Part shown: positions 11,547-15,381 of the stretch, piece after piece
Layout of the letters: each line of letters begins with the position of its first letter
How positions within the stretch are numbered: position 1 is the stretch's first letter
NCBI GenBank assembly: GCA_037917625.1
Contig: JAVCBY010000090.1
Location: 1 to 19,364 of the forward strand
DNA length: 19,364 nt
Direction of reading: 5' to 3'
From: Thermoproteota archaeon
GTDB lineage: Archaea > Korarchaeota > Korarchaeia > Korarchaeales > Korarchaeaceae
Program-made: the position numbers and the translations under genes
The notes under the pieces: model-generated
The model's database searches: none
What the model was told of the DNA's origin: nothing
Seen by the model: only the letters and a program-made list of their open reading frames with translations

Positions 11547-11623
11547 TGGCGCCCGGGCCGGGATTTGAACCCGGGTCTGGGGCTCGACAGGCCCCTATGC
11601 TGGCCGGGCTACACCACCCGGGC
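11547..11623 (-). tRNA. tRNA-Asp (anticodon GUC), intronless, CCA encoded
   Basis: Reverse complement GCCCGGGTGGTGTAGCCCGGCCAGCATAGGGGCCTGTCGAGCCCCAGACCCGGGTTCAAATCCCGGCCCGGGCGCCA folds into a full cloverleaf with a TTCAAAT T-loop and a CT-GTC-GA anticodon loop. Confidence 0.97.
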
Positions 11624-12499: not shown

Positions 12500-12673
12500 T
12501 CCAGTGACGCTCAAAAGATAAAGGTTCCTGAAGTGAGAGGGTTCACTCCAGGAGAATATCGATAAAACTCGCTTTATTATTATGTTTCGGTCAATAATGA
12601 ATATATTTTTTCATTTATATGAATTAAAAGTTGAAAATGTTAATAATATGATGGAGATGCTATTTTATGCGCA

Positions 12674-12690
12674 GCGAAAGGTATTTATCT
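12674..12690 (+). promoter_or_regulatory. BRE/TATA promoter driving the structured RNA / radical SAM leader
   Basis: gcgaaag-gta-TTTATct; standard spacing puts the start near 12710, at the first base of the closing helix. Confidence 0.6.
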
Positions 12691-12710
12691 CACATCATCC
12701 AGTAGATCAT

Positions 12711-12846
12711 GGGTCACCCGGCTCGCTGCGGGCTTAGCCCCTTCGTGGGCTATCGTGACATAGTGCGGGGGAAGGGGCCCTACATTGGCCCCGATCATGG
12801 GCGTCCCAAAGGACGCCACCCCTCCGTACTTTGTGCCGGGTGACCC
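12711..12846 (+). ncRNA. Unidentified structured RNA (non-coding RNA or riboswitch-like leader)
   Basis: GC-rich island beside AT-rich DNA. 12-bp perfect closing helix 12711-12722/12835-12846; hairpins 12735-12752, 12774-12792, 12800-12817; stem 12758-12771/12821-12834 with G-U pairs that favour the + strand. Confidence 0.65.
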
Positions 12847-12872
12847 CACCTCCGCCTCCCTCGGTGGAGAGA

Positions 12873-13937
12873 ATGTGGTTCCTGAGGCCGGATTGTATAA
12901 CAGCATTTGAGGAAAGGGAGATAAGGGATTCCATACCTCGCTATATAGATGTAGTTGAGGGCAGGAAATCCCCTCTCTTCAAGCTCTCGAAGATAATCAG
13001 GCTTGAGCCCTCGGATGACCTTTGGAAAACCCATGAGGAAGGATTGAAGATCCTCAGGGAAATTTTAGAGGGAGATGAGAACCCTAGGAGGGGCGAAGAT
13101 GGAATATCCCTCTTAGATGTTAAGGTATACTTATCCCTCGAGCTCGCAGGGAAATGCAGGTTCTGCGAGTGGAAATGCGGTGTCAACAGGATTGAGGGAG
13201 AATCTGGAGTGTGTAGAGTGAGGGAAACGAGAGTTTCGAGTGGCTTCATCCACATGGGGGAAGAACCTCCAGTGAGTCCATCGGGCACTATATTCTTCTC
13301 AGGCTGCAATTTCAAGTGTATATACTGTCAGAACTGGGACATATCTCAATTCCCCGAGTCGGGGAGGATAGTATCTCCTGAGAAACTAGCAGCTCTCATG
13401 GATGATCTCAGGAGGAGGGGCGCTAGGAACATAAACTTAGTCGGTGGGGAGCCGACTCCCAACATACATACGATATTGCTCTCCCTCAGATATGCTTCGG
13501 AGGACTTCCCCGTGATATGGAACTCCAATATGTACATGAGTGAGGAGGGCATGAAGCTCCTGCTCGGCATCGTAGATCTTTGGCTCCCTGATTTCAAGTA
13601 TTGGAAGGATGAATGCGCCAGGACCTTGAGCGGAATCCCCAGGTATTCGGAAGTCGTTAGGAGGAACTTATCCATGGCTTATGAATTCCCGCCCGGGGAG
13701 ATTATAGTGAGGCATCTAGTCTTACCTAATCATGTAGATTGTTGCACTAAGCCTATACTGAGCTGGATATCGAGGAACATACCGAGAGCCCTCGTGAACA
13801 TAATGGACCAATATAGGCCGGAGTACAGAGCGCATCAGGTACCTGGGATGAATAGGAGGGTCAGCTCGGATGAGATTAGGGAAGCTTTCGAATTCGCGGA
13901 TAGCCTTAAGCTTAGATGGAGGTCCGTCAGCCGGTGA
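12873..13937 (+). CDS. Radical SAM protein, PflX-like (pyruvate formate-lyase activating enzyme-related)
   Basis: CRFCEWKCGVNR...GVC, HMGEEPP, GTIFFSGCNFKCIYCQNWDIS (CxxxCxxC), GGEPTP, WLPDFKY, RHLVLPNH, MDQYRP. Start ATG 12873 after SD GGTGGAG. Confidence 0.92.
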   Translation: MWFLRPDCITAFEEREIRDSIPRYIDVVEGRKSPLFKLSKIIRLEPSDDLWKTHEEGLKILREILEGDENPRRGEDGISLLDVKVYLSLELAGKCRFCEWKCGVNRIEGESGVCRVRETRVSSGFIHMGEEPPVSPSGTIFFSGCNFKCIYCQNWDISQFPESGRIVSPEKLAALMDDLRRRGARNINLVGGEPTPNIHTILLSLRYASEDFPVIWNSNMYMSEEGMKLLLGIVDLWLPDFKYWKDECARTLSGIPRYSEVVRRNLSMAYEFPPGEIIVRHLVLPNHVDCCTKPILSWISRNIPRALVNIMDQYRPEYRAHQVPGMNRRVSSDEIREAFEFADSLKLRWRSVSR

Positions 13938-14496: not shown

Positions 14497-14565
14497 AGAC
14501 CCACCTTGAACCCAATAGCTGATTCCCTTTTAATATGGAACATAAGTCAAGTTAGGGGAATAAAT

Positions 14566-15381
14566 ATGATCTCGATAATAGAAGTTGAAGCGACTAGTCA
14601 GGGGGACGGAGTGATACCTTTCACTGGACCCTTCTTCAGGGCCGCTGTGCTGAGATCGATATCCTCTCAGGATCCTCTGCTCGCGAAAGCCCTGGAGCTA
14701 TCCTCTAAAAAGATATTCGTTGAGGCACTCAGGAAGGAGAGGAAGCAGATGCCATGCGGTTCCTTGGAGGAGTCAGTTTACATTGGCTCGGAGTACAGAG
14801 GATCCATAATAATATTTAATGATAATGTGATAAGTGATGCGATAAAATCATGGATATTCAAGAAACCCACCATAACGATAAAGGATATTCCATTTAAAGT
14901 GACATCGTACATGCATCAAGAGATAAATATACTGGACTTCATACAAGAAAATCCATGCAGGAATTTCAGGCTCCGCTTCCTCACGCCCACGTGCTTCAAG
15001 AGGGCGACTTCTCAGTACTGCTACCTCTACCCAAATCCCAGGCTTATCGTCTCCTCTCTCGCTTCAGCTTGGAATGCTCTCTCACCTAAGAAAGGTCCGG
15101 AAACTAGATTAGCAGCTACTTGGGCCGATCTCAGCGTTGTAGAGACGGGATACGAATTATGCACGACTAAACCTGTGGAGATGAGCGGGGAGAAGACATT
15201 CGTCGGTTTCATGGGCTGGGTGAACTATAAGGTGATAGATCACCCCGAATGGCATAGATCGTCGCACGAGGAGATGGCTAAATGGCTAGCGACTTATCTG
15301 ATGTTCGGGGAACTGATAGGAGTAGGATATATGAGGAACATGGGGTTCGGAAGGATAAAGTTTGAGGTTAAGAGGAAGTAA
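14566..15381 (+). CDS. cas6: CRISPR-associated endoribonuclease Cas6 (stand-alone)
   Basis: C-terminal G-rich loop GVGYMRNMGFG (GhGxxxxxGhG), FLTPTCFKR, YLYPNP, GFMGWVNY. Start ATG 14566 with TATA-like ttttaata at 14528-14535. Confidence 0.88.
   Translation: MISIIEVEATSQGDGVIPFTGPFFRAAVLRSISSQDPLLAKALELSSKKIFVEALRKERKQMPCGSLEESVYIGSEYRGSIIIFNDNVISDAIKSWIFKKPTITIKDIPFKVTSYMHQEINILDFIQENPCRNFRLRFLTPTCFKRATSQYCYLYPNPRLIVSSLASAWNALSPKKGPETRLAATWADLSVVETGYELCTTKPVEMSGEKTFVGFMGWVNYKVIDHPEWHRSSHEEMAKWLATYLMFGELIGVGYMRNMGFGRIKFEVKRK

Follow-up and report, generated by a model that had tools for sequence, protein, structure and literature searches.

Does the GC-rich segment that lies directly ahead of a radical SAM gene in this korarchaeal contig encode a structured RNA, and if so, does that RNA serve the gene or act independently of it? 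The window, that is, the whole 19,364-nt stretch of DNA that was analyzed, had originally been predicted to carry at this point a promoter-driven RNA of unrecognized type with several helical junctions. The RNA feature is real, conserved, and uncatalogued; its coordinates and those of its promoter, its helices, and the adjoining gene are given in Table 1.

Table 1. Features of the structured RNA locus and of the gene downstream
Feature	Position	Strand	Description and basis
BRE/TATA promoter element	12674-12690	+	GCGAAAGG then TATTTAT at 12682-12688; read from the sequence
Structured RNA, P1 to P1	12711-12846	+	136 nt; fold and covariance model R1 (137 bits)
P1	12711-12722/12835-12846	+	GGGTCACCCGGC/GCCGGGTGACCC; perfect 12-nt inverted repeat
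P2 hairpin	12735-12740/12747-12752	+	UAGCCC-CUUCGU-GGGCUA; invariant GCGGGCUUAG directly before
P3, clade specific	12758-12771/12821-12834	+	MFE fold of the source sequence
P4 hairpin	12774-12779/12787-12792	+	GGGGCC-CUACAUU-GGCCCC; invariant GGAA directly before
P5 hairpin	12800-12806/12811-12817	+	GGCGUCC-CAAA-GGACGCC; MFE fold and alignment
Anti-SD/SD hairpin	12850-12869	+	CUCCGCC-UCCCUC-GGUGGAG; 3 nt past P1; MFE fold
PflX/PflA-like radical SAM gene	12873-13937	+	354 aa; Pfam, cysteine motif, fold

The TATTTAT box begins 29 nt 5' of G12711, the first base of P1, and this spacing places the probable transcription start at or beside that G, approximately 24 to 29 nt past the TATA. The repeat that forms P1 is the sole perfect 12-nt inverted repeat within positions 12500 to 13000. 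When positions 12705 to 12875 were folded, the unconstrained minimum free energy (MFE) structure contained each of the five helices, together with the two three-way junctions, at -95.8 kcal/mol, compared with -69.4 ± 4.1 kcal/mol in 200 dinucleotide shuffles (z = -6.5), none of which equaled it. The minus strand of the RNA region gave a weaker fold (z = -4.2), and because there are many G-U pairs, with those in P1, P2, and P5 becoming A-C mismatches if read on the opposite strand, the RNA was assigned to the plus strand. The segment forms a GC island, with a GC content of 0.65 across positions 12725 to 12874 compared with 0.29 to 0.31 immediately upstream. The BRE/TATA element, the pairings of P1 to P5, and every coordinate given in the original prediction agree with the sequence; a TATA-like box at a similar distance is also found in relatives.

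The product of the gene downstream matches the Pfam families Radical_SAM (PF04055; E = 3.1e-17, 63.7 bits) and Fer4_12 (PF13353), and the CxxxCxxC motif (C145/C149/C152) is invariant in 20 archaeal ortholog sequences. The best Foldseek match to its AlphaFold model (pLDDT of 91) was 3c8f, the PFL-activating enzyme, with an E value of 1.1e-10 and a TM score of 0.74 (by target length), the search otherwise returning generic radical SAM folds. No PDB entry was matched when the protein sequence served as the query, and no NCBIfam equivalog was matched at its cut-off. Given the Pfam domains, the invariant cysteine motif, and the top structural match, the "PflX-like" label attached to the gene at the outset is a fair one. 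A second invariant cysteine set, C95-x2-C98-x3-C102...C114 (residues 95 to 114), lies in the N-terminal domain, which has no Pfam match, and may contribute an auxiliary cluster or bind zinc. Orthologs of the gene were identified in 32 of the 35 other genomes of the korarchaeal family, covering all five genera, and at 40 to 59% identity across many archaeal lineages, at loci titled Crenarchaeota/Thermoproteota, Hadarchaeota, Heimdallarchaeota, Thermococcus, and several DPANN-type lineages. Upstream of the locus lies a tRNA-Asp (GTC) gene (positions 11547 to 11623, minus strand), and a gene for a Cas6 endoribonuclease (positions 14506 to 15381, plus strand) is found two genes downstream.

The phylum was represented by only 43 species genomes in the collection, and the relatives searched included 20 other genomes of the genus and 15 from four sister genera. 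Using BLASTN, the RNA segment was found in 17 of the 20 other genus genomes, in 0 of the 15 sister-genus genomes, and in 0 of 25 more distant ones. The covariance model (R1) identified exactly one copy per genome in 18 of the 20, the two genus genomes that gave no match being approximately 70% complete, and at default filters it found no match in other genera. A metagenome scan with a P4-P5 pattern returned 10 loci, mostly duplicates of known genomes, with one new variant (L155). No other segment of the locus is as well conserved within the genus as the RNA, and in distant genus members homology starts at the first G of P1, with the distance to the TATA maintained.

To examine pairing across the genus, a model comprising P1, P2, P4, P5, and a 3-bp CGG/CCG helix from RNAalifold was applied to a trimmed alignment of 18 genus sequences (A2). 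It was found that 99.7% of the 645 cells were paired, compared with 36 to 49% when the partners were slid by 1 to 3 columns. Changes on both sides occurred in five pairs (four in P1 and one in P4), a number equaled by 2 of 500 shuffles, while the covariation score of the alignment was reached by none of the 500. P1, with 4 of its 12 pairs altered on both sides, kept 99.5% of its cells paired, and P4, with one compensatory pair, kept 100%. P2, which consists of six pairs and a two-pair extension in this alignment, and P5 are almost invariant (99.3 and 100% of cells paired, respectively), the loop of P2 being variable; because these two helices never covary, covariation neither supports nor contradicts them. 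Structural conservation in relatives, which the original prediction had set as a check, was found in 18 of the 20 other genus genomes, with compensatory changes in P1 and P4.

P3 behaved differently from the other helices. As drawn, it pairs in 58.1% of cells across the 18 genus members and holds in the sub-clade of the source sequence only, the pairs kept in all 18 being inner G-C pairs (A2 columns 62/119, 64/117, and 65/116); some genus members have a local hairpin, CCAC-N4-GUGG, in its place. The two nested three-way junctions that had been proposed are consequently present in the MFE fold of the source sequence but do not extend to the family as a whole. Within the genus, the unpaired segments GCGGGCUUAG, GGAA, and CUCCG.AC show little or no variation, and the 3' strand of P3 includes the conserved CCUCCG.AC. 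One genus member (G002; loci L055/L037) carries a strongly diverged RNA (55 bits), in which a different helix appears to enclose P4, judging from the sequence and predicted folds.

Beyond the genus, sampled representatives of all four sister genera were found to have a diverged GC-rich RNA of 124 to 154 nt directly 5' of the radical SAM ortholog. In these RNAs a TATA begins 27 to 31 nt before a long terminal helix (theme GCCGCCCGGC/GCCGGGCGGC), a P4-like hairpin is present (GGGGNC-N7-GNCCCC), and another hairpin occupies the position of P5. In 18 of 18 representatives of the five genera, P1 is preceded by an AT-rich TATA-like box that starts 27 to 37 nt ahead of its first base, and P1 shows further compensatory variants in the sister genera. 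From an unrefined alignment that MAFFT made of 18 representatives, RNAalifold recovered P1 (9 pairs), P4 (5 pairs), and part of P5 (3 pairs), with 9 of the 17 pairs compensatory; in P4, four of the five pairs had changed on both sides with pairing kept. With filters off, R1 scored the sister-genus RNAs at 18 to 28 bits, over the full length in two genera and over P3 to P5 only in a third. As reverse complements of true members scored 11 to 26 bits, partly overlapping this range, these scores alone are no proof of homology, and the real argument for a probable kinship is the combination of position, promoter spacing, and shared helices. A covariance model-guided family alignment (A5) contained reverse-strand matches and, at 282 columns, was too ragged for a second model. 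In one sister genus (g2; L060 to L064), approximately 100 extra GC-rich bases with additional hairpins, e.g., CCGGGGG-N-CCCCCGG, separate the RNA from the start codon, so that the leader there exceeds 250 nt.

The junction sequences that are invariant within the genus are altered between genera. Such fast turnover would argue somewhat against a classical metabolite aptamer, and would be no less compatible with a protein partner, or with a role that depends on architecture, than with such an aptamer. Outside the family the RNA was absent: in three further families of the phylum, the 5' regions of the orthologs are short and AT-rich, and among 80 ortholog loci across the archaea, R1 matched only 11 loci of the korarchaeal family, leaving 69 loci elsewhere without the RNA.

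An unrelated conserved motif of approximately 55 nt, ..GAUGUCUUAAGUCAUGCCCACUGA-N4-9-UGAUGA.UAUCGGGGUAUAGGAA, was observed at nine loci of an Ignisphaera/Desulfurococcales group (L078:773-943, L079:1340-1510, L080:752-922, L081:1327-1497, L083:1342-1512, L086:1355-1525, L090, L092, and L105:1357-1527). Eight of the nine copies fall within the 5' region of the ortholog of this radical SAM gene, and the copy in L078 is located approximately 650 nt upstream; Rfam gave no match to it at an E value of ≤0.1 for L081, L083, and L090. By our own reading of the sequence, its CUGA...UGAUGA portion looks like a D'/C' K-loop and is a possible L7Ae site. The motif hints at recurrent RNA-level control of this gene.

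Between the korarchaeal RNA and the ATG at position 12873, positions 12847 to 12872 are GC-rich and contain neither an AT-rich promoter-like stretch nor a T-run, as is also the case in relatives. Because the gene has no promoter-like element other than that of the RNA, the RNA is probably the 5' leader of the PflX-like radical SAM mRNA. Their adjacency adds little to this, as synteny (endonuclease-IV-like gene, RNA and radical SAM gene, kinase-like gene, and cas6) is conserved across the family, and adjacency is thus mostly inherited and not independent evidence. In G002, the flanking genes differ, yet the RNA and the radical SAM gene are still adjacent; the two appear to have moved together, which would tie the RNA to the gene.

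A second genus member, G003, has lost the gene. At its locus (L034, positions 1147 to 1371 and 1660 to 2425), the radical SAM sequence is a decayed pseudogene that is interrupted by several in-frame stops, has an N-terminal deletion, and no longer contains the CxxxCxxC motif. The divergent upstream endonuclease-IV-like gene is truncated to residues 11 to 82, and a search at an E value of ≤1e-20 revealed no further copy of the radical SAM gene. The RNA is intact (129 bits), keeps its TATA, and is 88.8% identical to that of the sister genome G019. Read as an RNA kept without its gene, and hence independent of it, this case was overturned by a relative-rate test of G003 against G019 with two outgroups. 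The RNA had 8 G003-specific and 0 G019-specific changes over 133 sites, compared with 27 and 23, respectively, over 537 sites in the kinase-like gene, a functional neighbor; the radical SAM remnant had 55 and 12 over 467 sites and the endonuclease-IV-like remnant 23 and 8 over 216 sites. Constraint on the RNA thus appears to have relaxed where the radical SAM gene died. As the rate in the G003 RNA (6.0%) is approximately half that of the neighboring pseudogenes (11.8 and 10.6%), some residual gene-independent constraint is possible.

That slower decay, in an RNA that remains intact with its TATA despite both flanking genes being broken, is what would be expected of a stable small RNA (sRNA), either derived from the 5' untranslated region (UTR) or independently terminated or processed, that acts in trans, e.g., as a component of a ribonucleoprotein (RNP) or as a partner or substrate of the radical SAM enzyme, while the gene merely shares its promoter. 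The RNA starts at P1, which coincides with the predicted transcription start, and closes with a 12-bp GC helix, in the manner of stable structured RNAs, and the absence of any G019-specific change in 133 sites compares with 2.6 to 4.3% in the coding neighbors. The U5 run that G002 has between its RNA and its SD sequence could also be read in this way, but no consistent T-run terminator follows P1 in the genus or the family, and with no other AT-rich promoter-like stretch available to the gene, read-through must occur. The acceleration of the RNA, moreover, falls exactly in the gene-less lineage, and R1 never placed the RNA at a second locus, or apart from the radical SAM gene or its remnant, in the genomes scanned. 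With a target or protein partner not evident, we regard an sRNA acting in trans as unlikely, although it is the alternative that fares best.

A passive leader, one that blocks 5'-to-3' decay at high temperature or insulates two divergent promoters and senses nothing, would account for a 5' end buried in a 12-bp helix and for quick sequence turnover between genera in which the architecture of P1 plus hairpins is retained. Korarchaeum members are hyperthermophiles. Stability alone, however, needs none of the unpaired segments that are invariant within the genus (GCGGGCUUAG, GGAA, and CUCCG.AC), a 136-nt multihelix fold far exceeds what protection demands, and the RNA is lacking ahead of the orthologs from three further families in the phylum. 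On this balance a purely structural role is doubtful.

Korarchaeota are poorly represented in seed alignments, and a diverged member of a known family (RNase P, signal recognition particle [SRP] RNA, 5S rRNA, a tRNA-like RNA, a C/D or H/ACA guide, or a known riboswitch) might therefore have been missed by the models. Searched with the whole window at gathering thresholds, however, Rfam 15 returned a single match, a tRNA at positions 11550 to 11623. Between positions 12500 and 13000, matches at an E value of ≤10 were minus-strand and at chance level (CssrA, 14.6 bits against a gathering score of 93, and PyrR205, 12.1 bits against 35.6), and eight related loci, including leaders from other genera, yielded at an E value of ≤0.1 only tRNAs and one subthreshold match overlapping a tRNA. 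RNase P (RF00373), 5S (RF00001), and SRP (RF01857) RNAs were each found once, above the cut-off, elsewhere in all three genus genomes checked (G012, G015, and G003), and ARAGORN identified only the tRNA-Asp at positions 11547 to 11623, with no tRNA at the RNA locus. By eye, no C/D, ACA, or canonical K-turn motif was seen in the korarchaeal RNA; the GGAA and GAUC that flank P4 do not fit the K-turn/L7Ae consensus, in which tandem sheared G-A pairs follow a 3-nt bulge or a CUGA/UGAUGA K-loop is formed. Membership in a known family is accordingly very improbable, and the earlier claim that the RNA is unrecognized held in the Infernal/Rfam comparison that had been proposed for it. Searches for mimicry in three genus genomes found GCGGGCTTAGCCC at ≤2 mismatches approximately as frequently as a reversed control, and the P4 motif at ≤3 mismatches gave one unrelated extra match, which leaves mimicry of rRNA or of other sequences unsupported. 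No description of this RNA, or of small or leader RNAs, was found in the literature searched on Korarchaeum/Korarchaeota. We regard it as a new RNA family that belongs to the structured-leader type and is confined to one korarchaeal family.

A protein-coding explanation is very improbable, for although ORFs of 44 to 79 aa overlap the region on both strands, a leaderless upstream ORF (uORF) at positions 12709 to 12843 (44 aa) is opposed by the loss of its ATG in most relatives and by 1- to 3-nt indels among close relatives, and, for this or a minus-strand ORF, the substitutions are compensatory across helices rather than periodic and homology begins at P1 rather than at the start of the ORF.

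If the RNA is a cis-acting leader, how it might act is suggested by the sequence that follows it. The SD sequence just 5' of the ATG is paired in a 7-bp hairpin (Table 1), which is predicted to be stable at 80°C in eight sequences of the source's clade, while most other genus members have a 4-bp CACC/GGUG stem only, predicted to be open at that temperature. The CACCUCC element is absent from G019 though its radical SAM gene is intact, and in the sister genera the spacer between the RNA and the gene is entirely different. Across the family, no conserved alternative and mutually exclusive pairing was identified that would connect the fold with the SD; CGGGC-UUA-GCCCG, which by our own reading of the alignment is a possible alternative pairing of P2 bases, found no support. 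A tandem CACCUCC(R)CCUCC is present between P1 and the SD (positions 12847 to 12862 and in relatives), and CCUCC occurs a third time within the RNA (positions 12822 to 12826). The 3' end of 16S rRNA has the same sequence, and the three copies might vie with one another for pairing to the G-rich strands and to the SD.

In the mechanism that we propose, the first 136 nt of the leader would form a domain in which the long closing P1 encloses the G-rich P4 and P5 and the lineage-variable P2 and P3. A factor acting in trans, whether a small ligand or a protein (for instance, the enzyme), would bind at the P3-P4-P5 junction, and its binding would decide whether the ribosome-binding site, three bases past P1, stays paired with the CACCUCC/CCUCC anti-SD. 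Access to the SD would then govern translation of the radical SAM protein. We place about even confidence in the reading that the RNA is a new cis-acting leader working through an SD-sequestering hairpin. The more specific proposal, that it is an archaeon-specific riboswitch or RNP switch whose aptamer was invented in one korarchaeal family, and that it senses a metabolite linked to radical SAM chemistry (SAM, 5'-deoxyadenosine, methionine, or the enzyme product) or the enzyme itself and gates translation of that enzyme, is tentative and on present evidence improbable. In its fold, covariation, and distribution the RNA does show one generic trait of riboswitches, a conserved structured element in the 5' leader of a putatively regulated gene. 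An RNA thermometer would mask the SD in a weak, heat-labile hairpin and would need no aptamer upstream. At 80°C, opening is predicted for the 4-bp SD stem of most genus members but not for the 7-bp stem of the source's clade; a thermometer offers no explanation for the 136-nt conserved fold.

The closest functional parallels to a cis-acting leader of this kind are the bacterial purine, TPP, and SAM-I riboswitch leaders, which couple a multihelix junction aptamer to an SD-sequestering platform. Like these, the korarchaeal RNA is a folded 5' leader in which a long P1 closes the structure, with junction nucleotides that are conserved (here within the genus), an association with a single gene family, and an SD paired with a pyrimidine-rich anti-SD just past P1. 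Unlike them, it matches no Rfam riboswitch, is confined to one archaeal family, varies in junction sequence between genera, and has no alternative pairing identified. A second parallel is provided by leaders that bind proteins for autoregulation, among them the ribosomal-protein leaders, the ThrRS operator, and the 5' UTRs with K-turns bound by L7Ae. The korarchaeal leader resembles these in adjoining the SD of one gene and in combining a fast co-evolving sequence with a conserved shape, and differs in having neither a canonical K-turn, by eye, nor detected mimicry; it is the CUGA...UGAUGA motif of the Ignisphaera-group orthologs that, by our own reading, resembles the K-loop of L7Ae-bound 5' UTRs.

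Among archaea, very few known riboswitch classes are in use, with one instance in Korarchaeota, according to a survey (McCown et al. 2017, PMC5473149). A study of Pyrococcus abyssi describes sRkB and sRk28, noncoding RNAs derived from 5' UTRs and proposed to be riboswitch-like (Phok et al. 2011, PMC3124441), which, like the RNA described here, are GC-rich, structured, leader-derived RNAs of hyperthermophilic archaea. They belong to another phylum and to other genes (a QueC-like ATPase and another ATPase), and are likened here by description, not by sequence (PMC3124441). Some of the P. abyssi RNAs carry K-turns (PMC3124441), in contrast to the korarchaeal RNA, in which none was seen by eye, and the terms "radical SAM," "pflX," and "formate lyase" do not occur in that article (PMC3124441). 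To such leaders the korarchaeal RNA adds a well-supported, lineage-specific example with clear covariation, placed before a widespread radical SAM gene. If it merely stabilizes the mRNA, it is a modest addition to the catalog of archaeal RNA families; if it senses a ligand or the enzyme, it would offer an in vitro route to the function of that enzyme in organisms that are not readily cultured.
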